Positions 36,780 to 63,850 are shown, counted from the stretch's first letter. The stretch is DNA of 64,000 nucleotides from Longimicrobiales bacterium (GCA_965249725.1 CBDFMQ010000002.1:2688001-2752000), one strand, 5' to 3'. Made by a program: numbers and translations. The notes: generated by a model from the letters alone, not told the origin.

Positions 36780-37529
36780 CCCGTCGCCGAGGAGGGCGAG
36801 GACCGGATACCCCGGCTCCGCGCGCGGGTGCGGCACACGACGGTGATCGTGCTACCGGCCGACGAGCGGATCCTCGACTTCGTGGCCGGCGACTCGGAGT
36901 ACTGGCACCTGACGGGCGCGGCCAACGTCGCGTACCTGAAGCCCCTGGCCGAGGACGCGGCGACGAACATCGCGCTCGTCTGCGAGTCGGGCCGCATCTA
37001 CTCGTTCCTGGTCGCCGAGCACGGCGAGGAGCCGCCACACCTGGTCGTCCGGGTCGATCCGGGCGCCGAGGCGGCGGGCGCATCCGGCGCTCCCGGGTTC
37101 GTCGCCCGGAGCGAGGTCGCGGCCTACCGTGAGATGGCGGCCCAAGCCGCCGATGCCGCGCGCTCGGCGCGCGAGGAGGCCGAGGCGGGCATCGTCGAAG
37201 CGCGTGAGCAGGCGCAAGCGGAGATCGAGGCGTTCCGGGCCTCCTATCCCGGCCGGCTCGCGTTCGAGTACCGGCTGGACGGGAAGGCGAAGGATCGTCC
37301 GTTCCTCATCGAGGCGATGTGGCACGACGGGCGGTTCACCTACATCCGCTCGCGCGCCCAGGAGTCGCCGGCGCTCTACGAACTGGAGGACGGCGAGCCG
37401 AGCCTGGTCGCGTTCGACCTCGCCGAGGACGGCCTCTACATCGCACGCCGCGTGCTGGGCGACGGGTGGCTCCGGATCGGCGACAAGCGGGCGCGCTGGC
37501 GGTTCACGCCCGGGGAAGCGCTCCGATGA
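36780..37529 (+). pseudogene. VirB9/TrbG-like T4SS protein lacking signal peptide and native start
   Basis: RHTTVIVLP, AYLKP, TNIAL, WHDGRFTYI, PALYE; upstream in-frame stop at 36678 and no signal peptide. Confidence 0.75.
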
Positions 37530-38785
37530 GCCGCTGGAAGCAGTTGGTGAAGCAGCCGAAGGGCGCGCTGCCGGGCGGCATCGTGACGAAGGCCGGGATC
37601 GTGCTGATCGCCGTGCTCGTCGGCGGCATGCTCTTCTCGTCGTCGCTCACGGGTCCCGAGGACGATGCGGCCCTTCCCGGAACCCAAGCGGAGCCGCGGG
37701 CGGTGGACGGCCGCGCGGGCCGCGCGTTCGAGGGCCGCCTCCGCGCGGAAGCGGAGCGTCACACCCAGCAGGCGGCGGTCGAGGCCCGAGCCGACCTTGC
37801 GGACCGGCAAGCCGCCGCCGCCGAGGAGGCCCTGGCCGAGGCGGAAGGCGCGGCGGTGAACCGGGCGGCCGGAATCGGCGGCGCCGAGTTCGAGCTTCGC
37901 GAGACGGTCCGGCTCGAGGAGATCGAACGCCGGACGCGCTCGCTCCGCTCGCTTCCCGTCGCGCAGTCGCACCGGGATCCCGGACAGGCCCGGAACGGCG
38001 CCGGACCGGCGAGCGGCGATACGGTTGACCGGGAACCGGAGTTCCTCGATCGCGCTCTCGAAGAGACGCTCGCGTCCTTCGAGCGGTCGCTGGCGGCACT
38101 CGAGGGCGAGATCGAGACCGGGCTGGCGAGCGGGGAGTTCCCGGCCGCCTCCCCGGGGGCTTCACCGCCAAGCTCTCGCCGCGCGCCCGGCACGGCCGAG
38201 CCGGGCCGGAGCGTCCGTGCGGAAGACCCGCCGGGCTGGGAACGGATCCGCGAGGGCTCGTTCCTCGAGGCCGTGCTGCTGACGCAGCTCTCGGGCGAGT
38301 TCCCCGGCCCCGTGCTCGCCATGGTGTCGGTACCGATGTATTCGGCCGACCGCCAGCGGGTGCTGATCCCGCGCGGCGCGCGCGTCGGCGGCGCGGCCCG
38401 GGCCGTCCAGGACCGGGACCAGAGCCGGCTCGCGGTCGCGTTCCACCGGCTGCTGCTGCCCGGCGGCAGCTGGATCGACCTCGAGTTCGCGGGGCTGAAC
38501 CAGGCGGGCGAGGGCGCGCTCAAGGACCAGGTGAGCCGCCACTACTTCTCGACGTTCGCGGCCGCCGGCGCCGTAGGCGCGCTGAGCGGACTCACGCTGG
38601 CCGGAGCCTCGCCCTACGGACTACGGGCCGGCGTCGGACAGGGGCTCGGCAACAGCGCCACCTCGATCCTCGACCGGTTCCTCAACCGGATGCCCGCCAT
38701 CACGATCCGCGCCGGCCACCGCCTGCGCATCTGGCTCACCTCCGATGTCCTGGTCCCGAGGCCCGGGACCACGCCGATCAACTGA
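37526..38785 (+). CDS. VirB10/TrbI-like protein
   Basis: N-terminal TM, GSFLEAVL, VLIPRGA, RLAVAFHRL, PAITIRAGHR. Confidence 0.85.
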   Translation: MSRWKQLVKQPKGALPGGIVTKAGIVLIAVLVGGMLFSSSLTGPEDDAALPGTQAEPRAVDGRAGRAFEGRLRAEAERHTQQAAVEARADLADRQAAAAEEALAEAEGAAVNRAAGIGGAEFELRETVRLEEIERRTRSLRSLPVAQSHRDPGQARNGAGPASGDTVDREPEFLDRALEETLASFERSLAALEGEIETGLASGEFPAASPGASPPSSRRAPGTAEPGRSVRAEDPPGWERIREGSFLEAVLLTQLSGEFPGPVLAMVSVPMYSADRQRVLIPRGARVGGAARAVQDRDQSRLAVAFHRLLLPGGSWIDLEFAGLNQAGEGALKDQVSRHYFSTFAAAGAVGALSGLTLAGASPYGLRAGVGQGLGNSATSILDRFLNRMPAITIRAGHRLRIWLTSDVLVPRPGTTPIN

Positions 38786-38804
38786 CCCCAAGGAGAACAC
38801 CATC

Positions 38805-39707
38805 ATGCGCTACCGCACACTCGCCCCCGCCCTCTTCATTCCGCTTCTACTGCTCGCCAGCCCCGCGCCTGCGAGCGCCCAATTCGGCCTCGGCGGCGTG
38901 ATCCAGCGCGCCCAGATGATCGCCAACCAGGTGACCCAGATCGCGAACCAGGTCCGCCAGGTGCGGGCGATGACCCGCCAACTCACGGAGCTCGAGAACC
39001 AGCTCGACCACATGAGGCGCGCCGCGCGCGGCGAGGTCGACGCGCTGCTCGCGCCGTTCACCCAACTCGCGGCCGGACCCGTCGGGCTCGTGAGCAACGG
39101 ACTCGCGTGGGGGTCCGACTTCCACGGCGCGGCCCGCGAGACGGTAGATGCCGTCCGGGATCTGGGCGGCGGCCGCTCGCTCACCGGACTGTGGCGCAGC
39201 GCGCAAAGCACGGCCGACCGTGTGAGCGAGGCCGACATCCTCGCGCTGTTCCGCGACCATCCGCCCGAGGCCGCGACGCGGGCGCTCGAGGACTACCGCC
39301 GCGCCCGCGTGGCCGCCGACCGGCAGCGCGTGCTCGACTACGCGACGCTCGACGCTGCGGCCGCGCTCGCCGAGACGATCGAGAGCGCGCAAGGCTCGTT
39401 CGCCGGCCTGACCGCGAACCGCAACCTGTCGAACACGGCGCTCAAGCAGGCCGGTGTGGCGGCCCCTCTGAGCCAGGGCCGGATCAACGCGGCCCTCGGC
39501 CAGGTGATGGCCCACCAGGCGGTCGAGCAGGCGAGCCGCCTGCGGCAGGCCGAACTCGCGCGCCTCGAGCACCTTGTCGAGTGGCGCGAGAGCCGGATGC
39601 GCGCGAACGCTTTTGCCGGGACCCTGCGCACCGCCGCGTCCCGCAACCGGGACGCGCTCCGTGACGGGCTGCTGTTCCGGATCCCGTCGTTCTACACGGG
39701 CAATTAG
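38805..39707 (+). CDS. VirB5/TrbJ-like secreted protein
   Basis: Signal peptide, QIANQVRQ coiled coil, position before virB6; RBS AAGGAG. Confidence 0.6.
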   Translation: MRYRTLAPALFIPLLLLASPAPASAQFGLGGVIQRAQMIANQVTQIANQVRQVRAMTRQLTELENQLDHMRRAARGEVDALLAPFTQLAAGPVGLVSNGLAWGSDFHGAARETVDAVRDLGGGRSLTGLWRSAQSTADRVSEADILALFRDHPPEAATRALEDYRRARVAADRQRVLDYATLDAAAALAETIESAQGSFAGLTANRNLSNTALKQAGVAAPLSQGRINAALGQVMAHQAVEQASRLRQAELARLEHLVEWRESRMRANAFAGTLRTAASRNRDALRDGLLFRIPSFYTGN

Positions 39708-39725
39708 GCGAGGTGAGCGTTCGCA

Positions 39726-40715
39726 ATGCAACTCCCTCCGCAGTCCATCGATCCGAACGTTCCGGCGCAGATCCCCAACGACCAGCTCCAGGACTTCAAG
39801 AGCTTCCTGGACGTGGTGCTCGATACCGTGGTCGGCGCCGCCGCGCCCGACGTGCACACGCTCGGGCTCCAGCTTTGGGGCGGGCTCGCCGCCGTGATGG
39901 TCGCCTGGACGGGCCTCAAGATCGCGTTCAGCGGCACCTTCGAGCCGTGGGCCATCGTCAAGCTCGTCATCGGGATCGCGATCCCACGCACGCTGCTCCA
40001 CTACTACATCGTCCCGATCCCCGGGGTGGGGCTCACGTTCCCGGCCATGGTGGCGGGAGGGGGGATCTGGCTCCAGAACCTGTTCATCTCCGACGTGGTG
40101 TCGGCCGGCTACACCGAGATGACGGCGCTCGTCCAGGCGTATGCCGCGCACCTGGGCGGCGCGTGGTCGGGCGGGAACCTGCTGTCGGTCATGACCGCGG
40201 GCGTGAGCGTGCTCTTCTCCTCGTTCGTGACGCTGGTGATGGGCGCCTCGCTCGTGTTCTGCCTGCTGGCGCTCTTCTGCATCACCTATGCGCAGGTCAT
40301 CTGGGCGCAGGTCGCCATCGCGATCGTGATTCTCCTGGGTCCCGTGTTCATCGCGTTCCTCTTGTTCGAGCCGCTCGCGTTCCTGTTCTGGGGATGGTTC
40401 CGGTCCCTCATGGTCTACACGCTCTACGGCGTCGTGGCCGGCGCCGTGCTCCGCGTCTTCATGGGCGTCGGCATGGGCTACATCACGACCTACGCCGATG
40501 CGCTCATGGGCACCGGCACGGCCGATGCGGCCGAGCTCTGGCTCTGGGCCGTCGTGCTTCTCCCGCTCGTCGTGTGCGGCCTCATGGCCGGACTCAAGGT
40601 CGGCGAACTCGCCTCGATGCTCGTCTCCGGCTCCGGCTCCGCCGGGTCCGGGTTCGTCGCGCTCGCCATGCAGGGAGCCAGCCGCGCGGCGGCCCCCGCC
40701 AAGCCACCCGTCTGA
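39726..40715 (+). CDS. VirB6/TrbL-like polytopic membrane protein
   Basis: Multiple TMs, LLGPVFIAFLLF..LFWGW motif. Confidence 0.8.
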   Translation: MQLPPQSIDPNVPAQIPNDQLQDFKSFLDVVLDTVVGAAAPDVHTLGLQLWGGLAAVMVAWTGLKIAFSGTFEPWAIVKLVIGIAIPRTLLHYYIVPIPGVGLTFPAMVAGGGIWLQNLFISDVVSAGYTEMTALVQAYAAHLGGAWSGGNLLSVMTAGVSVLFSSFVTLVMGASLVFCLLALFCITYAQVIWAQVAIAIVILLGPVFIAFLLFEPLAFLFWGWFRSLMVYTLYGVVAGAVLRVFMGVGMGYITTYADALMGTGTADAAELWLWAVVLLPLVVCGLMAGLKVGELASMLVSGSGSAGSGFVALAMQGASRAAAPAKPPV

Positions 40716-40735
40716 AGCCCAAGGAGATGCCGCCA

Positions 40736-41404
40736 ATGAAACGAGACCGCCATGCGGGCCGCGAGTACGCCGAGATCTGGGCCGAGGCGGTCCACGCGAA
40801 CCGGAGGCTGCGGACGATCCTGATCTTCCTCTCGGCAAGCTGCGTCCTGCTCGCCGTGATCCTGCTGCGGATCGCGGGCGCCGAGCCGCCCAGGCCCATC
40901 GTGGTCCGCGTAGACGAGGTCGGCCGCGCCGAGGCGCTCGCGTACGAGGCCGCAACCGCCCAGGCCGATCCGCTCGATCCGACGACCAAGTACTTCCTCA
41001 ACAGGTTCGTCCACGACTTCCACTCGCGCCGCCGAGCCACCGTCGAGGAGCAGTGGACCCGGAGCCTTCGGTTCCTGTCGACCGAACTCGCGAACGCCGC
41101 GTTCCAGCGGGACGGCGCGGAGGTCGCAAGCGTGGCGGCCGGGACCGCCGACACCGAGCTCCAGGTCGAGCAGGTCGTGCTCCGCATCCATCCGTCTCCC
41201 GAGCCGCCCCACGGCGCGACGGCAGACTTCGACCTCGTGCACCTCCGGGACGGACAGGAGATCCGGCGCGAGCGCTGGTCGCTCACGCTCCGGTTCGAGT
41301 TCCTCAGGTCCATCCCGCGCGAGCTGGTCGTCCACAACCCGATGGGCATCCTCGTCACCTACCTACAGGCCGACCAAGCGCTCGTGACGGAGGACTCGAG
41401 GTGA
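40736..41404 (+). CDS. VirB8/TrbF-like protein
   Basis: Single TM, PIVVRVDEVGRA, NPMGILVT. Confidence 0.85.
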   Translation: MKRDRHAGREYAEIWAEAVHANRRLRTILIFLSASCVLLAVILLRIAGAEPPRPIVVRVDEVGRAEALAYEAATAQADPLDPTTKYFLNRFVHDFHSRRRATVEEQWTRSLRFLSTELANAAFQRDGAEVASVAAGTADTELQVEQVVLRIHPSPEPPHGATADFDLVHLRDGQEIRRERWSLTLRFEFLRSIPRELVVHNPMGILVTYLQADQALVTEDSR

Positions 41405-42318
41405 TCGCCCATCTGAAGGGACGCGAGAAGGCGCTCGAGTCCTTGGGCTGGACGGGACGCAGGGCCGAGTGGATCGCGCTCGTATGCCTGCACAGCGGCG
41501 TGTTCACCCGCGCGCAACTCACCGATGGGCTCCGCATCCACCGCCGCACGGCCCGCCGGTTCGTCCGAGCCATGATGGTTCGGAAGCTCGCGGTAGAGGA
41601 GACGCTGCACGGCCGGAAGGTCTGCCGGATCTTCGCCCGCCCGGTCTACCGGGCGCTCGGTGCCGAGCACATCCGCCATCGCAGGACCGCCTCCGAGGAA
41701 GTGCTCATGCGCCGTCTCCTCTCGCTCGACTACGTGATCGAGCAAACGGGCCTGCCGTGGCTCCCGACCGAGTCCGAAAAGGTAGCCGCGTTCGAGGCGC
41801 TCGGCATCGAGCGCAGCATCCTGCCCGTCCGCGTGTACCGGGGCGCCGCAGGCGAGACGCGGCGCTACTTCCCCCTCAAGCTGCCCGTCGCGCTTGACGG
41901 TCGGGGCGCGGTGTTCGTCTACGCCGATACGGGCCACGAGACCGCCGCGGGGCTCCGCTCCTGGGGCCACGCGCACCGCGGACTCTGGGGCGCGCTCAGG
42001 GAGCGGGGCCGGCCGGTAGAGGCCGTCGCCACCGTGCGCACCCAACCGGAACTTGCACGGGCTCGGAAGGTCCTCGGGCACTGGGCCGAGGCACCGACCG
42101 ATCCGCATCCCGCCGACCCGGCCCGCCGCGAGATCGCCCGGATCGAGCGGTCGATCCGCGACATGGACGACGCGGCGGTCGAGAGGTACGGCGGCCTCCA
42201 GGGCTGCTTGATACGGATCGTCGAACTCGAGGAACTGCTGCGATCCGCCCGCCCCGGAACGGCGATCGACGGGTTCGCCGCATGGCGTTCGAGCCGGCTT
42301 CGCGGGGGCCTGTTTTGA
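41401..42318 (+). CDS. Element-encoded hypothetical protein with N-terminal wHTH-like region
   Basis: GTG start overlapping the virB8 stop; LVCLHSGVFTRAQ, RRLLSLDYV, YFPLKLPV. Confidence 0.7.
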   Translation: MIAHLKGREKALESLGWTGRRAEWIALVCLHSGVFTRAQLTDGLRIHRRTARRFVRAMMVRKLAVEETLHGRKVCRIFARPVYRALGAEHIRHRRTASEEVLMRRLLSLDYVIEQTGLPWLPTESEKVAAFEALGIERSILPVRVYRGAAGETRRYFPLKLPVALDGRGAVFVYADTGHETAAGLRSWGHAHRGLWGALRERGRPVEAVATVRTQPELARARKVLGHWAEAPTDPHPADPARREIARIERSIRDMDDAAVERYGGLQGCLIRIVELEELLRSARPGTAIDGFAAWRSSRLRGGLF

Positions 42319-42495
42319 GCGCCGGATCGCCGGGTGCCGGGGACCTGCGGCGAGTGCCCATCCGACATCGGGGGCGTGCGGACACGGAATCGCCCTTCCA
42401 AAGGACACGCCGCCGGTTGTGCATGTCGCTGGACGGCTTGCGGTTGCGCCACGGCCACCGGAGCGTGCGTGGCACGCGGGAGCCGGCGACCGTGG

Positions 42496-42589
42496 CCGGA
42501 GCGACCCCCCTCTTTGGATGCCTGGCGTGGCATCGGGGAGGATCGGCATGGGACACCCCCATGCCGTCCTCCGCGGGGGGTCGCTCCGG
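42496..42589. other. Nested inverted repeats, candidate oriT
   Basis: Perfect 15-bp IR ccggagcgacccccc / ggggggtcgctccgg enclosing a second ~15-bp hairpin (42536-42572). Confidence 0.5.
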
Positions 42590-42622
42590 GCCAGCGATCC
42601 CTACGGGAAGGTTGTCGGACCG

Positions 42623-44662
42623 ATGAGGCCCTGGACGCTCGTCCTCATCGGCGTGGCCGTGGTCGCGGTCGCGGTCCGCGCCTTCCTCGAGCCGTTCCCG
42701 GACATCGGCGGGAACTCCGTGCTGGACCTGATCGCCTACCACGATCCGGGCCTGCATGCCGTGATTCGCGTCTGGTACTACGCGGCGCCAGCCGTCGCCT
42801 TGCTGCTCGCCGGCAGCGTCTGCCTCTCGGTCACGAGGGTCTGGCTCGAGCCGCGTACCCGGCGCGGCGCTCGCGGGAAGCTTCCCGCCTGGCCCACCTC
42901 GGCCAGGGACGAGGCGCCCTCGCTCGTGATCGGCGAACTGCATCATCCGACCGTGCCGCGCGAGAGCGAGCGGCCCTCCTGGCTCGTCGTCCCCGAGAAG
43001 GGGCTCTACACCGGCGTCCTCATCGTGGGTGCCGTCGGCACCGGCAAGACCACCGCCTGCATGTATCCGTTCGCCCGCCAGATCCTCTCCTGGCGGGCGG
43101 ACGATCCCGGCCGCAGGGCGGGCGCGCTGGTGCTCGAAGTCAAGGGGGATTTCTGCCACCAGGTCCGCGGCATCCTCGAGGACGCCGGCCGCGGGGACGA
43201 CTACCTCGAGATCGGGCTCGGCGGCTCCTGGCAGTGGAACCCGCTCGACGATCCGCTGCTCGATTCCTACTCGCTCGCCTATGGCGTCGCCTCCCTCATC
43301 AACCAGCTCTTCGGCAAGAGTAGAGAACCGTTCTGGCAACAGGCGTACACGAACCTCGTGCGCTGGATCGTGGAGCTGCACCGGCTCCTGCCGGGGGGCT
43401 GGGTCACGCTCCGGGACATCTACCGCTGCACCGTGGACGCGGAGTTGTTCGCGGGGAAGATCGGCGAGGCCCGCGAGATGGCCGACAGGATCTCTCCGGT
43501 GGACGCCGTCATCTCCAGCGACGACATGATCGCCCATGCGGAGGCGCTCAAGAAGTGGGACTGGGCGCCGGTGCCCGGCACTGAACAGGTGCGCTGCCGG
43601 ATGGACGCGGAGCTTCGGGCGCAGCTCGCGAAGCACGAAGTCGCATGCGAAGTGGAAGCGGCCGGGGGAGGCGCGGGCGGCGAGTTCAGGCAGCAGGTCG
43701 AGGCCATCGAGCGGTGGTACCTGCACGACTGGACGGTGCTCGACGCCAAGCTCCGCACCTCGATCGTCGAGGGCATCAGCGTCTTCCTCTCGCTGTTCGA
43801 CGAGCCGCAGGTCGCCGGCGTGTTCTGCCCGCCGCCACCGGCTGAGGAGGAGCCGCCGGCTGAAGCTACGCCGGACGAGAGCGACGACACCGAAGGCGCT
43901 GGCTATCCCGTGCCGGGGCTCCGGCGCCGACTGCCGCCGCTCGCCGATCTGATCGAAGACGGCAAGGTCCTCGCGCTCAACATGCCCGCTGGCGCGAACC
44001 CCGCGCTCGCCCGCGCCATCGGCGTGCTGCTCAAGAACGCGTGGATGCAGGCGCTGCTCCGGCGGCCCGCCGAGGCCGCGCGCCGGCCCGAACGCTACCT
44101 GCGGCCCGCCGTGTTCATCTGCGACGAATACCAGGCGTTCGCCACCGTCGGGCAGGACAACCCTTCGGGCGACGAGAAGGCGTTCGCGCTCACGCGCCAG
44201 TGCCGCTGCATACCGATCGTCGCCACGCAGTCGATCTCCTCGCTCCGCTCCGTGCTGCCCTCGGGCGAGGCTTGGCGCACGCTCGTCCAGACGCTCCGCA
44301 CCCGGATCTTCCTGTCGCTCTCCGATGAGGCGTCGGCGCGGGTCGCGTCCGAGATGTGCGGCACCGTCATGAAGACGCAGGCCTCCTACACGTTCACCGA
44401 GAACACGGGCCGGCCCGAGTTCTCGCTCCTCTCCGGACGCGCCGGAGGCGGACGCGGCACGATCGGCGCGAGCAAGTCGTTCCGCCAATCGAGGGAGCCG
44501 GTGTTCACGCCCCGCGAGTTCTCGCTGCTCGCCAACTACCAGGCGATCTGCCTGCCGTATGACGGGGTCGTGTCGCTCCCCGCGCGGCGCGTCTACCTCA
44601 AGCCCCACTACTTGCCGAAGGAGACCGGCTACTGGCGGCTCCGCGAGGAGGGCCGGATATGA
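42623..44662 (+). CDS. Type IV coupling protein (VirD4/TraD-like)
   Basis: Two N-terminal TMs, Walker A GAVGTGKT, LEVKGD, FICDEYQ, VATQS. Confidence 0.9.
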   Translation: MRPWTLVLIGVAVVAVAVRAFLEPFPDIGGNSVLDLIAYHDPGLHAVIRVWYYAAPAVALLLAGSVCLSVTRVWLEPRTRRGARGKLPAWPTSARDEAPSLVIGELHHPTVPRESERPSWLVVPEKGLYTGVLIVGAVGTGKTTACMYPFARQILSWRADDPGRRAGALVLEVKGDFCHQVRGILEDAGRGDDYLEIGLGGSWQWNPLDDPLLDSYSLAYGVASLINQLFGKSREPFWQQAYTNLVRWIVELHRLLPGGWVTLRDIYRCTVDAELFAGKIGEAREMADRISPVDAVISSDDMIAHAEALKKWDWAPVPGTEQVRCRMDAELRAQLAKHEVACEVEAAGGGAGGEFRQQVEAIERWYLHDWTVLDAKLRTSIVEGISVFLSLFDEPQVAGVFCPPPPAEEEPPAEATPDESDDTEGAGYPVPGLRRRLPPLADLIEDGKVLALNMPAGANPALARAIGVLLKNAWMQALLRRPAEAARRPERYLRPAVFICDEYQAFATVGQDNPSGDEKAFALTRQCRCIPIVATQSISSLRSVLPSGEAWRTLVQTLRTRIFLSLSDEASARVASEMCGTVMKTQASYTFTENTGRPEFSLLSGRAGGGRGTIGASKSFRQSREPVFTPREFSLLANYQAICLPYDGVVSLPARRVYLKPHYLPKETGYWRLREEGRI

Positions 44663-45669
44663 AGCGCGCGAGCGGCGTCGGCCACCTCACTCCGTTCCTC
44701 CCGGGCCTTGGAGCCCTGCTCGATGACCCGGAGGTCTCCGAGATCATGATCAACGGACCCGGCAACGTCTGGGTCGAGCGAGGGGGCCGCCTCGAGCCCC
44801 ACGAGGCGCCCGGGCTCACCGCCGCCTGGCTCCACCGCGCCGCGATCCACATCGCCCGGCCGCTCGGGCTCGATCCCGCCGCGAGGCCCATCCTCGACGC
44901 CCGGCTCAGCGACGGATCCCGGGTCGCCATCTGCACCCCGCCCGCGGCGCCCGAGGTCGCCATCACCATCCGCCGGTTCGGGGGCCGGGCGTTCTCGCCC
45001 GAGGACTTGGTGCGCATGGGCTCGCTGCCGGAGGCGGTCCTCCGGTCCGCCCGCACCACGCTTGCGTCCCGCAGGAACATCCTCGTCTCCGGGGGAACCG
45101 GCTCGGGCAAGACCACTCTGCTGAACGCGCTGATCGAACTGCTGCCCGAGGACGAGCGGATCGTCGCCATCGAGGACACGCTCGAACTCAGGATCGACCG
45201 CGCGAACTGCGTCCGCTTCGAGGCCGGGGCCATCGGCTCGGAAGCACCCGTATCGATCCGCGACCTGGTGCGGCACGCGCTCCGCCACCGCCCCGACCAC
45301 ATCGTCGTCGGCGAGGTCAGGGGCGCCGAGGCCGCCGACCTGCTCCAGGCGCTCAACACCGGGCACGGCGGATCGCTCACGACCGTGCACGCGAACAACG
45401 CGCGCTCCGCGCTCTCGCGCCTGGCGAGCTGCGCCATGCAGGCCGAGGGCGCGCTTCCCTGGGAGGTCACCTGCCGGGGCGTGGTCGACGGCATCTCGCT
45501 CGTGCTCCACATCACCCGGCAACGAGGCAGACGGTTCGTCGAGGAGGCCATCCAAGTCCAGGGCTACGACGCGGCCACCGGCCGCTGGATCACCGAACCG
45601 ATATCGGGCGGGGCGGCGAAGCCCCGGAAGAAGGAACAGACCCACACACCGAAGGAGGTGAACGCATGA
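44659..45669 (+). CDS. VirB11/CpaF family ATPase
   Basis: SEIMING, GGTGSGKTT, IEDTLEL, RPDHIVVGEVRG, NTGHGG. Confidence 0.92.
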   Translation: MKRASGVGHLTPFLPGLGALLDDPEVSEIMINGPGNVWVERGGRLEPHEAPGLTAAWLHRAAIHIARPLGLDPAARPILDARLSDGSRVAICTPPAAPEVAITIRRFGGRAFSPEDLVRMGSLPEAVLRSARTTLASRRNILVSGGTGSGKTTLLNALIELLPEDERIVAIEDTLELRIDRANCVRFEAGAIGSEAPVSIRDLVRHALRHRPDHIVVGEVRGAEAADLLQALNTGHGGSLTTVHANNARSALSRLASCAMQAEGALPWEVTCRGVVDGISLVLHITRQRGRRFVEEAIQVQGYDAATGRWITEPISGGAAKPRKKEQTHTPKEVNA

Positions 45670-45863
45670 CGGGCAACGACAGCACCATCCGCGTCGAGAC
45701 GTTCGAGGACTTCGACCGCGAGCTCGCGCGCGACGGCCGCGAGACGCTCGAGGTCCCGGCCTACCTGGCCGAGCAGTACGGCCTCTTCCGCGAGGAGGTC
45801 GGGAGCGAGGAAGACATCTTGGGCGCCGGCGGCGATCCGCACGGGGAGGTGGTGGACCGATGA
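45666..45863 (+). CDS. Small acidic hypothetical protein
   Basis: ATGA-coupled on both sides; RBS AAGGAGG. Confidence 0.6.
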   Translation: MTGNDSTIRVETFEDFDRELARDGRETLEVPAYLAEQYGLFREEVGSEEDILGAGGDPHGEVVDR

Positions 45864-46888
45864 AGCACGACGAATACCACCGCAAGTTCGCCGACCGGGT
45901 CATCGAGCAGATCCGGCAGGGCACCGCGCCCTGGCAGAAGCCCTGGGCGCCGGGCGAGCGCGTGCTCCCCGCCAACGTGGACACCGACCGCTCCTATCGT
46001 GGCGGCAACAGCCTGCACCTCGCCGCCGTCCAGCAGGAGCGCGGCTATGGCGACGTGCGCTGGGGCACCTACCGCCAGATCCAGGCCCGGGGCGGACAGG
46101 TCAGGAAGGGCGAGACCGGCACCCGCATCCTCTCTTTTCAGGATCACAAGCGGACCCAAGTCACCGACGAGCGCGGACGGCCCAGGAGGGACGCCGAGGG
46201 CAAGCGCGTCTACCGCTACGAACGCCTCGAGGCGCCGTTCGTGCGCCAGTACACCGTGTTCAACGCCGAGCAGGCCGACGGGCTGCCCGCGCGGTCCACC
46301 CCGACGCCCGAGCCGCTCTGGAAGACCCACCAGGAGGCCGAACGGGTGCTCGAGGACAGCGGGGTCCCCGTCCGTCACGTGGCCGGCGACCGCGCCTTCT
46401 ACCACCTGAACCGCGACGAGATCATCCTCCCCGAACGGGTGCAGTTCCCCTCGGCCAACCACTACTACCAGACGGCGCTCCACGAGCTGGGGCACAGCAC
46501 CGGCCACCCGGAGCGGATGAACCGCGAGACGCTCGTCGAAGGGATCAAGACCGGGTTCGGCTCGCCCGACTACGCGAAGGAGGAACTGAGGGCCGAGATC
46601 AGCGCCATGATGACGGGCGAGCGCGTCGGCGTCGGGCACGACCCGAGCCGGGGCGCCGCCTACGTCGAGGGCTGGATCGCCGCGCTCGAGGAGGATCCCC
46701 GCGAGATCCGGCGCGCCGCGGCCGACGCGCAGAGGATCTCCGACTTCGTGCTCGTTCGGCACATCGAGCGCGAGGCCGCACGGGATCCCGTGGCCGTGGC
46801 CGCGTCCCGCACGCCCGGACCTCAGCGGACCCAAGTACCCGTGCCGCCGCTCCCGACGCCCGAACGCAGCTCCGGGCCGAGCCGCTGA
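45860..46888 (+). CDS. ardC: ArdC-like ssDNA-binding antirestriction protein
   Basis: APWQKPW, YRGGN, WGTYRQ, VRKGE, VFNAEQ, HELGHSTGH, YAKEELRAE. Confidence 0.9.
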   Translation: MKHDEYHRKFADRVIEQIRQGTAPWQKPWAPGERVLPANVDTDRSYRGGNSLHLAAVQQERGYGDVRWGTYRQIQARGGQVRKGETGTRILSFQDHKRTQVTDERGRPRRDAEGKRVYRYERLEAPFVRQYTVFNAEQADGLPARSTPTPEPLWKTHQEAERVLEDSGVPVRHVAGDRAFYHLNRDEIILPERVQFPSANHYYQTALHELGHSTGHPERMNRETLVEGIKTGFGSPDYAKEELRAEISAMMTGERVGVGHDPSRGAAYVEGWIAALEEDPREIRRAAADAQRISDFVLVRHIEREAARDPVAVAASRTPGPQRTQVPVPPLPTPERSSGPSR

Positions 46889-46894
46889 GGACCG

Positions 46895-47794
46895 ATGAGA
46901 GGTAGGGAGATGTTCGACCGCACGGTCGAGGAGGACCCCCGTTCCGCCGCGCCACCCAGCCGCGAGAAGCATCACATGCGAAACGGCCATCGTCGAGAAT
47001 ACGCCGCGAGCCGGGACGGCGGGTCCATCTCCTTCACCGAACGGTGCGCCCGCGGACTTGCCGACATCGGCGTCTACGGCGCCGTCTCCTACCGCGACCT
47101 CGCCGAAGCCCGCTTCGGCGGCCATCCCCACACCACCCGGCGGGCCGTGAACGCCTGGATCCGGGAAGGGATCGTCGCGGAGACCCGGGCCACCGGACCC
47201 GGGGGCAACCCGTTCAAGATCCTGACCCTTACGCGCAAAGGCGTGGCCGACGCCCGCGAGCGGGCCGCCGAATGGGGGATGGATCCCGGCCAGGAAATGC
47301 GGTACGCACACACCCGGCCCGCCCAAGCCGCGCACGACACCGCCGTCTATCGCGCTTGCAGGGAGGAGCAGCAACGCCTCCACGCAGAGGGCGCCACCGT
47401 GCGGCGCATCCGCCTCGACGCCGAACTCAAGAGCGCCGTCGCGCGCGGGAGCGAGGCCGCGCGGAAGAAGGACGGGAAGCGGGCCGCCGACGCCGAACGG
47501 CACAGGATCGCCCGCGAGCTCGGCCTCCCCCTCGACGACGAGGGCCGCGTGCTCCACCCGGATGCGCAGATCGAGTACACCGATGCCGAAGGCCGGACCG
47601 GCCGCGTCAACATCGAGGCCGTCTCCGGCAACTACCGCGAACCGGCAGTCCGCGCCAAGGCCGCCGCCGGGTTCGCGCTCCACGCCAACGGGCCGGCGGC
47701 CGGGAAACTCCTCGGCAAGCTCGGCCTGGGCGGCGACGGCGGATCCTGGCTGCGCGGACCGGCCGACCGCGACCCGACCGCCGTCGAACTCTGA
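46895..47794 (+). CDS. Replication-relaxation (Replic_Relax/MOBC-like) protein, putative relaxase
   Basis: wHTH-like N-terminus ending LTLTRKG, AAHDTAVY, HPDAQIEY...NIE; start uncertain. Confidence 0.6.
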   Translation: MRGREMFDRTVEEDPRSAAPPSREKHHMRNGHRREYAASRDGGSISFTERCARGLADIGVYGAVSYRDLAEARFGGHPHTTRRAVNAWIREGIVAETRATGPGGNPFKILTLTRKGVADARERAAEWGMDPGQEMRYAHTRPAQAAHDTAVYRACREEQQRLHAEGATVRRIRLDAELKSAVARGSEAARKKDGKRAADAERHRIARELGLPLDDEGRVLHPDAQIEYTDAEGRTGRVNIEAVSGNYREPAVRAKAAAGFALHANGPAAGKLLGKLGLGGDGGSWLRGPADRDPTAVEL

Positions 47795-47815
47795 CGACCC
47801 GGAGGACTTTAGCCC

Positions 47816-48130
47816 ATGCAGCCTTGGAAGATCAGCGCGGGACTCACCGCCGCAATCGCCGGGACCACCTTCCTCCTCGGCGGCTCCCGCCTCGAATACT
47901 TGTCGCCGTTCTGGCCGGTCATCCTCGCCGATCACGGCGTCCTGCTCTCCCTCCACCTCGCGTTCGCGCTCGCAACCGTCGCGGCCGCCATCTACGCCGT
48001 CGCGCGCGCCACCGGGCTCGCCGACCTCGGGCGCCGCGTCGATCTCGCCGAACGGTCCGTGCGGCGCGGCCAGGGGGATACGGGCCTCACCGAAGCGCTC
48101 CGCAGGGACGCCGAAGGCGACTGGGACTGA
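47816..48130 (+). CDS. Small membrane protein
   Basis: Two hydrophobic segments, coding-like composition. Confidence 0.6.
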   Translation: MQPWKISAGLTAAIAGTTFLLGGSRLEYLSPFWPVILADHGVLLSLHLAFALATVAAAIYAVARATGLADLGRRVDLAERSVRRGQGDTGLTEALRRDAEGDWD

Positions 48131-48136
48131 ACGCGC

Positions 48137-48526
48137 ATGAGTGACCGAACGTCCGTCGAGACACTGCCCGCCAACTGGCGCAGGCACGCCAAGGCGCTCC
48201 GGCGCTACGGGGGCGAAACTCCGGCCACCGCGCTCGAAAGCTGCGCCGCCGAACTCGAAGCCACGCTCGTCGAGAGGGACGAGACCACCTTCTCGCTGGT
48301 CGAGGCCGCCCATGAGAGCGGCTACTCCTCCGACCACCTCGGGCGCTTGGTGCGAGACGGCAAGATCCCCAACGCCGGAAGGCCCGGCGCGCCCAAGATC
48401 GCCCGCAGCCACCTGCCACGGAAGGCACAAGCACCAGCCGAGCCGCCACTGGCGGAGCAGTCACGCCGACGCGACGTTTCAAACGTGCAGATCGTGCAGT
48501 CCATCATCGAAAAAGGAATCGAATGA
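48137..48526 (+). CDS. HTH protein, putative excisionase/regulator
   Basis: SLVEAAHESGYSSDHLGRLVRDGKIP; overlaps the integrase start. Confidence 0.7.
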   Translation: MSDRTSVETLPANWRRHAKALRRYGGETPATALESCAAELEATLVERDETTFSLVEAAHESGYSSDHLGRLVRDGKIPNAGRPGAPKIARSHLPRKAQAPAEPPLAEQSRRRDVSNVQIVQSIIEKGIE

Positions 48527-49686
48527 TGGCACGCACGAAACGAAGCCAGCGCAGCTACGCCGCTGGCGAATGGGGCCGGAACCGGGTGAGGGTCTTTCCC
48601 GATCCCAAGACCGGCTTGTTCCAGATCGAGTGGCGCGACAACGGGCGCAGGCTGAGCAGGTCGCTGAAGCACCGCGACTGGAGGCAGGCGAGGAGGCAGG
48701 CGGACGAGTTCGCCGCAGGATTCGCCGGGCCGGAGCTGAACGGCAAGAAGAACGCCGAGCCCGAGCCGCTCACGCTGAAGACGCTTTTTGACATCTACGG
48801 TGAAGAGGTGACGCCCACCAAGCGTGGGCAGTCGCGGCTGCACGACAGGGCCGCGATGAGGATGTTCCTCGGGTGCTTCGGCAGGGACCGGAAGCCCGCA
48901 ACGCTCTCCCAGCGCGACTGGGACCGGTTCATCCGGGAGCGGCGGGCGGGCAGGGTTGGCCCGAGCGGCAAACCCGTGTCCGACCGGATGATCGAACGGG
49001 ACCTGAAGTTCCTGCTCGCGGTCCTCAACTGGGCCGTGAAGTCGAGGGACGAGCGGGGTGAACTGCTCCTCGGCTCGAACCCGCTCAAGGGCCTGAAGAC
49101 GCCCACGGAGAAGAACCCGACACGGGTGATGCTTACCGAGGAAGAATACGGGGTCCTGCTCCACGTGTCTCTGGAGATGGACTGGCGCTTTCACGTTGCT
49201 CTGGTCCTCGCCCACGAGACAGGACACCGCATCGGCGCCATCCGTCAGCTTCAATGGTCGGACATCGACCTTGAATGCGGAGTGGTGCGGTGGCGCGCAG
49301 AGCACGACAAGTCGGGCTACGAGCACCGGACGCCGGTCACCACCGAGGCGCTCGCCGCCTTGGAGGAGGCGCGAAAGAGGAACCCCGTGACCGGACACAC
49401 TCTCGTGCTGCCCTCGCCGCAGGATCCGTCGAGGTGCGTGGGCTCCTGTCAGGCGCGCGGCTGGTGGCAAAAAGCGGAGCGGCTCGCGGGGCTTGAACCT
49501 AAGCGTGGGAGGGGCTGGCACTCCCTGAGACGGAAGTTCGCCTCCGACCTCATGGACCAGCCGCTCAAGGTGCTCTGCGAACTCGGCGGCTGGAAGGAGG
49601 CCAAGACGGTGCTGCACTGCTACCAGCGGGCCGACGAGGCACAGCTCAGGAAGGCTCTGGAGAGCCGACGCAGAGTTCGCGCCTGA
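48523..49686 (+). CDS. Tyrosine recombinase/integrase
   Basis: TGHR, DKSG, WHSLRR, GGW, CY catalytic set; adjacent to the right att site. Confidence 0.92.
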   Translation: MMARTKRSQRSYAAGEWGRNRVRVFPDPKTGLFQIEWRDNGRRLSRSLKHRDWRQARRQADEFAAGFAGPELNGKKNAEPEPLTLKTLFDIYGEEVTPTKRGQSRLHDRAAMRMFLGCFGRDRKPATLSQRDWDRFIRERRAGRVGPSGKPVSDRMIERDLKFLLAVLNWAVKSRDERGELLLGSNPLKGLKTPTEKNPTRVMLTEEEYGVLLHVSLEMDWRFHVALVLAHETGHRIGAIRQLQWSDIDLECGVVRWRAEHDKSGYEHRTPVTTEALAALEEARKRNPVTGHTLVLPSPQDPSRCVGSCQARGWWQKAERLAGLEPKRGRGWHSLRRKFASDLMDQPLKVLCELGGWKEAKTVLHCYQRADEAQLRKALESRRRVRA

Positions 49687-49779
49687 GGCCAATCAGCGGG
49701 AATCAATCGGCGGGAATCCGGTCCGGTATGCCCGTAAGTTCAATTACCCCAATCAGATACGAATCTGTCTACTTCTACC

Positions 49780-56887: not shown

Positions 56888-57238
56888 CTAAGAGTCGAGC
56901 GCCTCTTTCAGATCGCTCTCCCAAAGGCCGAGGAAATGAGCCTCGTACTGCGCGGGGTTGCGGGCGTAGTCCTCTGCCCAAGCGTCATAAGGCGGAAGAG
57001 CCAAGCGACGTGAAACACCCGACGTAGCCAGGTGGACCATTCGCTCATACGTGGGCTCGCCCTGGCCCCCCTCCAAGCGATGGGCCTCTTCTGCGAGCAC
57101 ATAGATCTCGTCGGGCGACAATAGGAGCAGGTGCTCGGCTACCTGAGCCGAACAGTACTCCAGGTACTTCGCCCGCAAGACCACGTCCGGCTCGTCTTCC
57201 TGTTCCTGAGGGGGGGTCTTGGGATCGGCGTCACTCAC
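56888..57238 (-). CDS. Hypothetical protein, stand-alone domain A
   Basis: RBS GGAGG; LRAKYLEYC..Q...LPPYDAWAEDY. Confidence 0.75.
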   Translation of the reverse strand: MSDADPKTPPQEQEDEPDVVLRAKYLEYCSAQVAEHLLLLSPDEIYVLAEEAHRLEGGQGEPTYERMVHLATSGVSRRLALPPYDAWAEDYARNPAQYEAHFLGLWESDLKEALDS

Positions 57239-57458
57239 GCCCGGCCTCCCGACTGACTCTCAGGCCCCTGTTGCGTACCGCCCTTCGGCACGCAAATCCT
57301 GGCCCGTCTTATGGTTACGTATTAGTGGAGGCGCTGCGTAGGGTCAAGGCCCGGGTGAAATACGTCGCAGTCGAAACAGGCTTGGGGCGGGGAGTCGCGA
57401 GGCTGCGTGTGAGACGCCGCAACGAATGGGGGAGACGCTGAAGGAGGAGGGCGACGCC

Positions 57459-57662
57459 CTAGGTGGCGAGTTGCGTCTGAGCGTCGCCGTCGTCGGGACT
57501 CTCACCCCGTTCACGCAAGTGACGATAGATCGATCGGCGGGTGAGTCCGTACAGCACGACCCGGCTCAGAAACTCCGGATCCGTCTTCTGGACTTCTTCC
57601 GCCTGCTCCGCAATATCACGAGGAAGTTGGACCTTGAGTTGAACGGAGCAGGTTTCCCACAT
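57459..57662 (-). CDS. Small protein, possible ribbon-helix-helix regulator
   Basis: Alternating strand VQLKVQLP followed by two helices; RBS GGAGAGG; upstream promoter. Confidence 0.65.
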   Translation of the reverse strand: MWETCSVQLKVQLPRDIAEQAEEVQKTDPEFLSRVVLYGLTRRSIYRHLRERGESPDDGDAQTQLAT

Positions 57663-57782
57663 GCGCGTACCTCTCCCACGATCTGATGGTTGAAATTTCT
57701 TGGAATGTTAGCAGGGATCGGATGATCCCACTGCAATCCAATGTCGTCTGGAAGGGCGAATTTATTTCTTCGAGGCGATCCC

Positions 57783-57811
57783 AGTATACAGGTCGTTTTC
57801 GATGGACGCAA
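57783..57811 (-). promoter_or_regulatory. Sigma70-like promoter for the 57459-57662 gene
   Basis: TTGCGT-N17-TATACT on the minus strand. Confidence 0.65.
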
Positions 57812-58013
57812 GCCTTTTCCAGAGTTGTCGTGTGCCCAACGTAATCTTGTAACTTGTTGCACCACAAAGACTTATGAATGCCCATTTTTGGACAAAACCG
57901 GCTGTTCCTCACCACGCCACGGCAACGTTGTTTCCTGATTCCCCGATTTGGAAAACCAGCAACGATAGGCACTTACGGAATTGAGGTCACCGGAAATCTG
58001 CCCCAGGACTGGT

Positions 58014-58037
58014 GTTCATTTTTTGCAAAAAATGAAC
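58014..58037. promoter_or_regulatory. Perfect 24-bp palindrome
   Basis: gttcattttttgcaaaaaatgaac. Confidence 0.6.
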
Positions 58038-58678
58038 TACGGCAGAGTGGACCTGAGGAAGGCGGTGAGTGTGGCCGAAGTGAACGACAGAAACCGGTCG
58101 CGGAGGTCTTGGAGCTCATCCTCGCAGAAGATGTCGCTGGTCCTGACGGAGGATTCAGCGGAGCCTCGATGGAAGCGAACGTACCCTCGCCAGAGGTCCT
58201 CGTCTCTGTAGACTTCGAGCGAGGCCTGCCAACGACGCGAGGCGTGCTCGACCTCCCTGACTTCGACCGTGACCGGCTCGGAGGGCTCGCCGGCATGGGG
58301 GTACGGCGCGCCCGCCTTGAGGTGGGCGAGGCGATGGGATTCGTAGTCCACCAACCAAACGTCGAACGACGGTAGTGGCAGCAGCTCGCGGCAGAAGCGA
58401 TGGAGCGTGGCCATGGGGTCCTTCGATTCGTGCAGACCGTGGTCCATCGCCCACTCTCTCGCCTCTCGATAGAGCGGGCGCACACCTTCGCGCGGCATCA
58501 GTTCCACGAGCCCTGCGGCTTGCCGCTGACAATACTCCGCGTACCTCCGCCTCAACGCCGAGGCGGTCGCGGGACGACCTGCCGCAGCCGGGGAACCCGA
58601 CGTCGGCGTCGGGGGACGCGACGTCGCACTCCGGCGCCCCGCTCTCACTCCTCGAATACGGTCCCGTTGCATCGCCAT
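58037..58678 (-). CDS. Hypothetical protein, domain A-domain B
   Basis: LRRRYAEYC..Q...LPSFDVWLVDY, then WRGYVRF...VRTSDIFCE. Confidence 0.75.
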   Translation of the reverse strand: MAMQRDRIRGVRAGRRSATSRPPTPTSGSPAAAGRPATASALRRRYAEYCQRQAAGLVELMPREGVRPLYREAREWAMDHGLHESKDPMATLHRFCRELLPLPSFDVWLVDYESHRLAHLKAGAPYPHAGEPSEPVTVEVREVEHASRRWQASLEVYRDEDLWRGYVRFHRGSAESSVRTSDIFCEDELQDLRDRFLSFTSATLTAFLRSTLP

Positions 58679-58698
58679 CGGTCGCGTCGGCCGCGGGC

Positions 58699-59610
58699 TC
58701 AGTGCACCGTACCACCGCCGACGGCGGCAGCATGGGTCCGAAGGGGCTCCGCCTTTACACGCCGCTCGCGGACGAACAGTCGGGCCAACGTCTCACGCGA
58801 GCCGAACGTGGACAGATGGTGCTCGACCGCCTTGAACCGACCCGGCTCGAAGCGGGCCAGGAGGCGGCCCAAGCCACGGCGGATGGTCACGAGCTCCTCC
58901 CGGGCCTCGGCCAAGGTCACCGGCAGGTTGAGGCGGACCTGGTATTGCACCGAGCCGCCCTCGTGGCCTTCCGTGATTCGCAGAACTTCACTATGGGGAA
59001 ACGCCTCGAGGACCGCCGCCTCTAGGTTCGCGTCCGGCTCGGGGGAAGGAGCACGGAAGATCAGCGCGTTGGCGTCGTAGTCCAGATAGGCTCGCGTGAT
59101 CCGGTGCTCCCCCGAGACGATCCGCACCGACGTGCCCTCGTGGAAGTCCAGGTCTCGACAGATGTCACGAAAACCGATTCGGAGGATGGAGGGACGGGTC
59201 AACGGACCGTATCCCACGCGACCGAGCAGGCTCAGAGCCATCTGGAAGCAGTACGCCCCCAGGGGGCCTCCATGCTCGTCCGCCTCACCGACGGCACGCT
59301 CCCTGATGAGGCTGTTCACATGCTCCAGCGTCGGCTCGTAAACCCAGTCCAGCACCACCAGCTCGGAGCTGAGGTCGAGCATCTTGACCGTGGAACTCCC
59401 GAGGTCCAGCACCTCTGCCGACGACGCAAAGCGGCCCTCCAGCACCAATGCCAACCCGATATCCTGAATCCTCCCACCAGGAGGATCGATCTCATGGAGA
59501 TCCCGGTACTGAACCACAGCCCGAGTGAGCGGAAGCTCGCAAATTCCGGGCACATCGGCCATCGCCTCCGGCCGCGCCTCAGACTGCAGTGAAAGGCTCG
59601 TCGCGTTCAT
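58699..59610 (-). CDS. Hypothetical protein
   Basis: Long ORF, RBS GAGGGAG, globular composition; no recognisable motif. Confidence 0.7.
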   Translation of the reverse strand: MNATSLSLQSEARPEAMADVPGICELPLTRAVVQYRDLHEIDPPGGRIQDIGLALVLEGRFASSAEVLDLGSSTVKMLDLSSELVVLDWVYEPTLEHVNSLIRERAVGEADEHGGPLGAYCFQMALSLLGRVGYGPLTRPSILRIGFRDICRDLDFHEGTSVRIVSGEHRITRAYLDYDANALIFRAPSPEPDANLEAAVLEAFPHSEVLRITEGHEGGSVQYQVRLNLPVTLAEAREELVTIRRGLGRLLARFEPGRFKAVEHHLSTFGSRETLARLFVRERRVKAEPLRTHAAAVGGGTVH

Positions 59611-59731
59611 CGTGTCTCCCTCTGACGTAAAACGCCCCCAGTGCCGGCAGGCCGGCCCACGAGGGCGATTCCGCGAGTCTGGGGCATACGACGCCCTTGA
59701 CACTCGTTCGACGATCTTCTTACTTTTCCCG

Positions 59732-59810
59732 TAGCGAACGAGGAAAAGCGGGTCGCCACCCGTGTGTTCCAGCGAGAGTCTCGGTGCCAGCCGGGACTCT
59801 CAATTTTTTT
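59732..59810 (+). ncRNA. Candidate sRNA 1
   Basis: TTGACA(59697)-N18-TACTTT promoter; hairpin 59749-59762; terminator stem 59774-59801 plus T7. Confidence 0.55.
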
Positions 59811-59856
59811 CTGGGTATGTCTCGCCCGACCGGCACCACATCGTGGCTGACCGGGC

Positions 59857-59951
59857 AAAAAAACCCGGCATTCTCGCCGGGTTTCGTCTGCGCTCCCAAC
59901 GGCCATCATTGACCGTAGGATGCGGTTTTTCGGGGCTTTCCATGCCCCGAC
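59857..59951 (-). ncRNA. Candidate sRNA 2
   Basis: TTGCCA(59987-59982)-N18-TATCGT with extended TG; two hairpins; terminator aaacccggc/gccgggttt plus T tract. Confidence 0.55.
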
Positions 59952-60128
59952 GTTCCCACGATAACAATATGTTTACCATTCTGGCAAGACGTTTCTCACC
60001 GTGGGCAGAACCGCGGCGTTCGTCTTCCTTGCCCCCAATGACGCGCGCGGACATCTTGGGAATCGTCACGCTGCGCACGGCTGCTCGGCAATCCTCCGTG
60101 CCCCTGAGCACCTCACACGATAGAGAAC

Positions 60129-60821
60129 TTGGCCGAACACGCCTTAATCGATCGCGCGCGCCAACGTTCGCTCGGGTTTCTGGAATCGGACGGTGAGAAC
60201 TGGGCCTGCTTTCTCATCACCTTCCAGGGCCGGGACAGCCAGTGGCATGGCCACCTTTCGTTCCGCCCCCGTGACAGCGAAGGCGAGGTGGACGAGGTCC
60301 GCACGGCGGACATCTTCATCGAGGCCTGCGAGTCGGATATCGACCAGAAGGCGAGAGGGCTCGGCCGACCGCTCATTCGGGCACTGTTTTCCTCTGCTCT
60401 CCACGCCCAGAAGCGGGACGAGGCAGAGTCGCCCAAGCTGCGCAAATGGTTTCGGACACTGCTCTCGGAGAACTCCCAGGAAATGGCGGCGGCAGCGGGA
60501 GCCTGCCTTGAGGATCCGTCCCAAGCCGATGTTGCGGAGCTTCGATCCCTGTACGATTCCTACCGGCTGGATCAGGTCTGTCACTTCATCGCGCTGCTCA
60601 AGCCCGATGACTTCGAGTCCGCGGTGGATCGCATCCTCGAAGGGCAGGCCGTCGACTTCGGGGCGAAGGATCGGCTCCAGCTTGCCATGATGGTCGTGGA
60701 GTACATCGAGAGCCGCATCCCCATGCCGCCTTTCGAGGTCTGGACGGCCGATTTCCTGGCCAACCGGGAGGAGTACCTCCTCTACGCCCACACGCTCCAT
60801 CGCGAGGGAAGACTTCCCTAG
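60129..60821 (+). CDS. Hypothetical protein, domain B-domain A
   Basis: WHGHLSF...VRTADIFIE, then [10 protein letters not shown]...[11 protein letters not shown]. Confidence 0.75.
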
Positions 60822-62992: not shown

Positions 62993-63850
62993 TCAAATGT
63001 CTAGGTCATCGCCGGACAGCTCGAGCTTGAACCTCCTGGCTTGCCGGGTCACCCACCTTCTCCACGATGCGGGGGGCGGTGACAAGTCCTCGCCACGCTC
63101 CATCCGATCCAGGATTCCCTCCAATTCCTGCTGTACCTCACCTCGCCGCTTTCGTGAGTAATGGCCCGTAACGCGGACCACTCCCATGGCCACCGCACCG
63201 CCAACCACTGCTCCGAGCGACCACGCTCCAACCGTCGGGACCGCGAGGACTGACCCGAGGAATGCAGCTACCGCGAAAGCAACGCCTCCACCCGCCCCGA
63301 GGCCGCCGATCACGGCGCCTGACGTGTAGTCGGCCCGAACGCCCGGCTCCACGGCGATTTCGACCAGGGTGGTGTCTTCATCGACCTGCTGGAGGCGGAC
63401 CTGGATCTCCTTGGCCGACGCCCAGTAGACCGTCTGCGACATCGAAGCGCCTGCTCGCGCGAAGTTCGAAATCCAGTCGACGGCCGGTCTGTACAGGAGC
63501 ACGTCTGATCCCTGCCGCACCGGCTGAAGAAGATGCCCGGCCACGAGAAACTCGTCCATTATGATGCGGAGCCGCTCCCTGTCCCCTGGCACGACGCGCG
63601 ACACCCGCACCGTCACGGATCCAAAGACACGAGCTACCACCCCCTGTGGATCGTCCGCCGTCCGGAGCTCCGAGAGAGCGCGGCGCACGTGCGCGTCCGG
63701 AAGGCCCACCTCACGCGCGATTCGGAACAGCTCTCCCTCGTCGAGCGCTCCCTCGCCGCCGTCCGGGTCGGACGTCGCGAGTTCCGAAGCACGTTTGATC
63801 ACAGCCTCGAATTCCCGCCGGGTCAGGCTAGTGCCCTTCTCCTCAGTCAT
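62993..63850 (-). CDS. Hypothetical membrane protein
   Basis: VIKRASEL..IAREVGL..VRRAL N-terminal module and two TMs. Confidence 0.7.
   Translation of the reverse strand: MTEEKGTSLTRREFEAVIKRASELATSDPDGGEGALDEGELFRIAREVGLPDAHVRRALSELRTADDPQGVVARVFGSVTVRVSRVVPGDRERLRIIMDEFLVAGHLLQPVRQGSDVLLYRPAVDWISNFARAGASMSQTVYWASAKEIQVRLQQVDEDTTLVEIAVEPGVRADYTSGAVIGGLGAGGGVAFAVAAFLGSVLAVPTVGAWSLGAVVGGAVAMGVVRVTGHYSRKRRGEVQQELEGILDRMERGEDLSPPPASWRRWVTRQARRFKLELSGDDLDI

Follow-up and report, generated by a model that had tools for sequence, protein, structure and literature searches.

The locus between ssb and rpsU of a Longimicrobiales bacterium raises the question of what three related proteins, built from two unclassified domains, do there and with which neighbours they act. 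The DNA analysed, here called the window, is a stretch of 64,000 nucleotides (GCA_965249725.1, CBDFMQ010000002.1:2688001-2752000), and the locus occupies positions 56,888 to 60,821. The original prediction, made from the sequence alone, had described domains A and B in the orders A, A-B and B-A; the three open reading frames (ORFs) and all motifs quoted for them are found where it placed them. The lone domain A protein (56888..57238, minus strand) comprises 116 amino acids (aa) and is acidic, with an isoelectric point (pI) of 4.4. The A-B fusion (58037..58672, minus strand, 211 aa) carries domain A at about 58307-58561 and domain B at about 58040-58303; the gene is present as predicted, but judging from homologues its start is more likely the second methionine, at 58672, than position 58678. 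The B-A fusion (60129..60821, plus strand, 230 aa), directly upstream of rpsU, consists of domain B at about residues 11-97, a linker helix and domain A at about residues 135-226. The observation is real and wider than first described: what tracks domain A most tightly is not one of its paralogues but a 67-aa protein resembling ribbon-helix-helix (RHH) regulators (57459..57662, minus strand), the first gene of a predicted RHH-A operon. We tentatively propose, at somewhat less than an even chance, that the locus is a lineage-specific regulatory hub built on a dimer of the RHH-like protein that has A as its partner; A-B, B-A and a 303-aa protein (58699..59610, minus strand) would be dispensable later modulators.

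The A domains of the three proteins match one another in BLASTP (A versus A-B, E 3e-5; A versus B-A, E 4e-7; A-B versus B-A, E 2e-5), and A-B matches B-A over domain B with E 0.002. Profile-profile comparison agrees, with 97.7% for A versus B-A and 98.2% for A versus A-B over domain A, and with 98.0% for lone B versus B-A and 97.8% for lone B versus A-B over domain B. The negative controls, A versus B and the 303-aa or RHH-like protein versus the A or B profiles or one another, stayed below 1%. The three genes are paralogues assembled from two orphan domains. Lone B is a fourth paralogue, encoded outside the window on contig C1 (G000:C1:294185-294487); a genome-wide profile search gave A, B, A-B and B-A as the set of the home genome, with no further copies. 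Neither domain had been recognised, and the window proteins indeed gave no significant match for A or B among the Pfam, NCBIfam, PHROGs and PADLOC profiles. A search of 126 A sequences against Pfam returned scattered matches only, with at most three members per family and a best E of 0.008, and the literature searches turned up no description. All five locus genes are under purifying selection, with ratios of nonsynonymous to synonymous substitution of 0.03-0.12 against two genomes of the same genus.

Occurrence was assessed in an even draw of 201 genomes of the phylum, to which the home family contributes 25, 18 of them from two genera. Domain A turned up in 102 of these genomes and domain B in 134; 39 had the RHH-like gene and 15 the 303-aa gene, whereas a search of the 19 genomes of four families found none of the four. 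Homologues with names belong to Gemmatimonadota. These counts and the strong synteny bear out the lineage-specific multi-component module that had been suggested; likewise, the profile similarity is significant, no characterised family was matched and the genes are co-located in relatives. The RHH-like gene is always single-copy in the 39 genomes carrying it. In 36 of them it lies directly upstream of lone A, as the first gene of a predicted two-gene operon, in five families with unrelated neighbourhoods; one family has RHH, A and B consecutively, with lone B right after A. In three families where A is fused to a methyltransferase-like domain, the RHH-like gene was found in none of 138 genomes.

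The alignment of the RHH-like family shows an alternating strand followed by two helices, with a spacing that agrees with the RHH pattern as judged against the spacing of CopG. A profile search of the PDB returned no RHH protein, and membership of the 67-aa protein in the RHH family is predicted from the pattern only. With RHH regulators (Arc, MetJ, CopG and the tandem TraY type) it shares the strand and two helices, their spacing, tandem duplicates and a position upstream of the partner gene. It differs from them in having no Pfam RHH match, in its turn, which is D-P-E instead of G-x-S/T, and in a conserved extra C-terminal helix (YGLTRRSIY). That the RHH-like protein forms a dimer is suggested by tandem RHH-RHH proteins, which make up five clusters; these proteins (P0270-P0273 and P0278) are 136-151 aa long, carry two RHH-like repeats in a single chain and come from short contigs. 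We know of no description of domain A or B as an RHH partner.

The gap that precedes the RHH-like gene is A+T-enriched and measures about 375 bp in most A-B-bearing loci. It contains a predicted sigma-70 promoter of RHH-A (57783..57811, minus strand; TTGCGT, 17 nt, TATACT), the position of which is conserved across 31 loci, and a 25-bp palindrome (57850..57874; consensus TAAGTnnTTG-N5-CAAnnACTTA), which in 29 of the 31 loci ends 37-41 bp before the -35 box. The palindrome was the best-scoring site upstream of the RHH-like gene in 8/8 loci outside the training set, from four families. In the home genome the copy before RHH-A ranks first of 33 sites, and 23 of the top 25 are intergenic. Promoter and palindrome travel together with RHH-A across families. 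The palindrome is probably not the operator of the RHH-like protein, because it also scores highly in genomes without the RHH-like gene (10/26 loci). Since its halves resemble the consensus of integration host factor (IHF), a general architectural protein is the likelier binder and an IHF-type site is likely. Immediately behind the stop codon of A-B lies an A/T inverted repeat (58014..58037), a possible terminator or DNA bend.

The gene order is gyrB, dciA, recF, enoyl-CoA hydratase, ssb, lone A, RHH-like, a low-GC gap, A-B, the 303-aa unknown, a gap, B-A and rpsU, and agrees with the placement first described, between ssb and rpsU together with the RHH-like and 303-aa genes; dciA was named by a Pfam match, and gyrB, recF, enoyl-CoA hydratase, ssb and rpsU by sequence recognition. 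The company of ssb, recF, dciA and gyrB in the home family would suit a role in replication or the nucleoid, in which A might mimic DnaA domain I or bind the palindrome, but we regard such a role as very unlikely. Relaxed DnaA boxes occur near RHH-like starts, where 15.2 kb contain 8 of them and the null mean is 0.9. Most belong to one sister family; they lie in the RHH-like leader of L025, L026, L027, L029, L031, L023 (18-34 nt before start) and L069, whereas the RHH-A promoter of the window has no DnaA box. As dnaA is on another contig, near a GC-skew minimum, the gap before RHH-A is unlikely to be oriC. Domain A gives weak profile matches to DnaA domain I (E 0.37-0.52, about 30 residues), yet DnaA domain I has a KH-like alpha/beta fold and was not among the matches listed in fold searches with the strandless domain A model. 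In five loci (L057:5965, L059:4775, L061:4630, L063:4727 and L075:479) the palindrome also lies downstream of the A-methyltransferase-like gene, at a distance of 45-100 bp, a point for this role; against it, RHH-A adjoins unrelated genes in three other families and lone A is strongly acidic. In some of these five loci the palindrome precedes a small conserved ORF of 55-75 aa with no Pfam match.

The core of the proposed hub would be an RHH-type dimer with lone A encoded right behind it. Domain A would be a helical interaction module with no catalytic role; by binding the dimer it would tune what the dimer does on DNA, and B may be a second small interaction module. The locus is predicted to work like an RHH regulator with co-regulators, A and B being outside all families searched. 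Modelled as a complex, two RHH-like chains and A received weak support: the score, which covers A only, was 0.47 against 0.24 for the best control. The runs agreed in at least 89% of contacts, with a partner pLDDT (per-residue model confidence) of at least 71; the two RHH-like copies reached 75-76. In the benchmark of this score, the mark was reached by 116/157 solved complexes and 2/215 mismatches, and at 0.60 or below by 18/157 solved complexes and both mismatches. The analysis behind the proposal shows paralogy, selection, synteny, the co-distribution of the RHH-like gene with lone A, conserved promoter elements and the reuse of A and B elsewhere. The regulatory circuit named in the original prediction fits the RHH-like gene, the conserved promoters, a small RNA (sRNA) candidate and fusions to signalling domains, and it is still something we infer.

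Several points weigh against the hub. Scores of the class obtained for the complex model are rated by the tool as more often wrong than right unless the complex is likely a priori. None of 30 members of the RHH-like family matches the Pfam RHH models at E 0.5, and the RHH-like gene and A are separated in 3/39 genomes. The RHH-like protein has a net acidic composition (pI 5.0), and one family has an acidic strand as well, both unusual for DNA binding; the analysis identified no operator for it, and the high-scoring palindromes in genomes without its gene count here as well. The tests that were run gave no link between the RHH-like protein and A-B, B-A or B. Finally, the fusion with domain A N-terminal to an EAL domain is a single cluster.

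A small RHH gene directly before its partner is also the layout of type II toxin-antitoxin operons with RHH antitoxins, such as FitAB and RelBE, and a weak predicted complex is a further likeness. The RHH-like protein and A could be a domesticated pair of this type, with the fusions as detoxified copies, but this is highly improbable. Neither a toxin fold nor a catalytic motif is known for the partner, which is reused in fusions, the pair is single-copy at a fixed position under strong purifying selection, PADLOC and PHROGs gave no match, and A occurs without the RHH-like gene in three families. The lone A model is an all-helical domain at residues about 19-106, with no strands (pLDDT 92.9; predicted template modelling score, pTM, 0.79). 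Residues common to all A subfamilies are mostly hydrophobic or aromatic (L21, Y25, Y/F28, L81, P82, F/Y84, W87), plus R22; the invariant surface differs by subfamily, each retaining its own. No catalytic residue common to the A subfamilies was found, and the R-x4-6-H motif of HEPN RNases is not conserved across them. Matches to HEPN took in the linker helix and disappeared with lone A as query. Domain B in the B-A model (pLDDT 80, pTM 0.56) has four strands and two helices, as does MmoD (PDB 6d7k chain H); MmoD differs in that identity is 4%, the score was tied with unrelated beta-propeller fragments and there is no monooxygenase nearby. Near one lone B, two small ORFs (L080:5449-5691 and 5778-6011) look like strand-strand-strand-helix proteins (F-x-D-x-x-G-x-x-W) and may be distantly related to domain B.

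The heteromeric complex of the three paralogues suggested earlier is disfavoured as an obligate unit, and we hold it to be decidedly improbable. All three occur together in 22 of 33 fetched loci, which have the order of the window; of the others, two lack A-B, six lack A-B and the 303-aa gene, one has the RHH-like gene and A only, and two have B-A only. As 32 of the 33 were picked for carrying B-A, its constancy is overstated there. In the even draw only 4/25 home-family genomes have all three, against 8 with A and A-B, 11 with A only and 2 with none, and B-A is absent from all 18 genomes of the two genera. Full-length B-A (rows with E <1e-30) was found in 29/36 genomes of the same family, in 11/12 of one sister family and in 0/12 of another, and the sister-family loci have no A-B. 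The best 150 of 333 domain A representatives (149 new identifiers) comprise 77 lone A, 55 A-B and 17 B-A; a loop insertion interrupts 11 of these lone A, and at least one is fused to EAL. The separate invariant surfaces of the subfamilies would suit a complex, but the three genes have three predicted promoters, and the mutual placement of A and B in the B-A model is not confident. B-A is broken by a frameshift in L035:4001-4745 (G002) and lies in two pieces in G004:C286, which may be assembly errors.

For domain A, the A-B and B-A sequences form sister groups (support 99/98), which would also fit partners in one complex. The B domain of B-A groups with the lone-B subfamily adjoining A (94/82), and that of A-B with the lone-B subfamily adjoining a lone HisKA gene (93/76; profile 98.3% versus 94.4%). 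With sister A domains but B domains allied to different lone-B subfamilies, the simpler reading would be that a duplicated A was fused twice, independently, and not that one ancestral fusion was permuted; holding both B domains together was not rejected (approximately unbiased test, p 0.26, 27 rows). Under the hub proposal, A-B and B-A would be later fusions with their own promoters, and their diverged A surfaces and B input could make them competing or relaying partners.

Domain A is also found N-terminal to a degenerate methyltransferase-like domain in three families (96.2% to lone A in profile comparison). In one lone-B subfamily, a stand-alone HisKA (DHp) protein of 60-66 aa, which keeps its His, follows within about 15 bp in 9/9 fetched loci (L074:5667-6148, L076:4928-5373, L089:3601-4091 and six more, in Gemmatimonadales-type genomes). 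This pair is oriented divergently to rho. The A-methyltransferase-like gene is usually 6-16 kb away from it, a linkage that may be incidental because the genes between are housekeeping. The lone-B type of the home genome has an AbrB/MazE-like gene within 2.5 kb in 3/3 annotated loci. The HisKA protein with its intact His and the fusions of A to EAL and methyltransferase-like domains raise the alternative that A and B are adaptors of two-component or cyclic di-GMP signalling, acting on kinases or enzymes, and that the RHH-like gene only autoregulates the first operon. The persistence of both domains in families without the RHH-like gene also favours it. We consider it unlikely: the window cluster has no kinase or receiver gene, the B beside HisKA is of another subfamily, and a direct RHH-A contact has the weak model support given above.

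The second intergenic gap holds back-to-back promoters, a leader terminator and the sRNA candidate. The predicted promoter of the operon formed by the 303-aa gene, predicted as its first gene, and A-B (59958..59987, minus strand) contains a conserved spacer element, GTAAACATATTGTTAT, in a pattern present in the window and 15 other loci. The predicted B-A promoter (60029..60057, plus strand; TTGCCC, 17 nt, CATCTT) was seen by eye in relatives and not listed by the consensus scan. A terminator-like hairpin in the 303-aa/A-B leader (59856..59886, minus strand) may be an attenuator or the end of a second sRNA. The sRNA candidate of about 80 nt and its promoter (59697..59810, plus strand; TTGACA, 18 nt, TACTTT) lie antisense to the leader of the 303-aa gene; the candidate has GCCA-loop hairpins and a terminator. 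It gave no Rfam match at the gathering score and is found as one copy in 20/61 genomes, 13 of which had built the model, at this locus wherever the contig shows it. Between the 303-aa gene and B-A, L030:4983-5440 has three hairpin units with GCCA loops in tandem, and a TTGACA promoter belongs to each of two of them; the array looks like a multiplied protein-sponge sRNA.

The 303-aa protein has no family or PDB match. His303 is invariant in 23/23 homologues, the tail before it being variable, and 22 of the 23 end in Val-His; [LIV]H endings occur in 7/3497 crude gene calls. A C-terminal His degron of Lon, x-L/I-L/I/V-H, is described for Yersinia and E. coli only (PMC11986505). The 303-aa protein shares its V-H end, and the home genome has two Lon_C matches; its third-last residue is T, not the L/I of the degron, although T occurs in two degrons of Table 1 of that source (PMC11986505). 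In the proposed hub, further control would come from the antisense sRNA, from the terminator in the leader and from a Lon-type degradation of the 303-aa protein. It is conceivable, though rather unlikely, that domain A is a new fold and that A and B are phylum-specific signalling modules shuffled by Gemmatimonadota (A, B, A-B, B-A, A-methyltransferase-like, A-EAL, B beside HisKA) into an undescribed core regulatory circuit, namely a partner-switch whose target is an RHH-like master regulator and which is connected with an antisense sRNA and with Lon proteolysis.

This analysis contributes the RHH-A core and the promoter anatomy, along with the other architectures and the fold result. Gemmatimonadota abound in soils and in the sea; few of them have been cultured, and their own regulators are little known. 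The locus defines two unclassified domains found across most of one class; for one of them the model is confident and no solved structure comes close. The RHH-like protein and A form a small, concrete pair with a conserved promoter, which makes them a structural target and an entry to phylum-specific regulation.

Elsewhere in the window, a 285-aa protein (62993-63850) with no significant Pfam match is kept near the locus in many relatives and has a distant paralogue elsewhere in the genome. A high-GC block (36800-49700) resembles an integrative conjugative element, with VirB-like, coupling-protein-like and antirestriction-like ORFs and an integrase-like ORF at 48523-49686, all named by recognition only.
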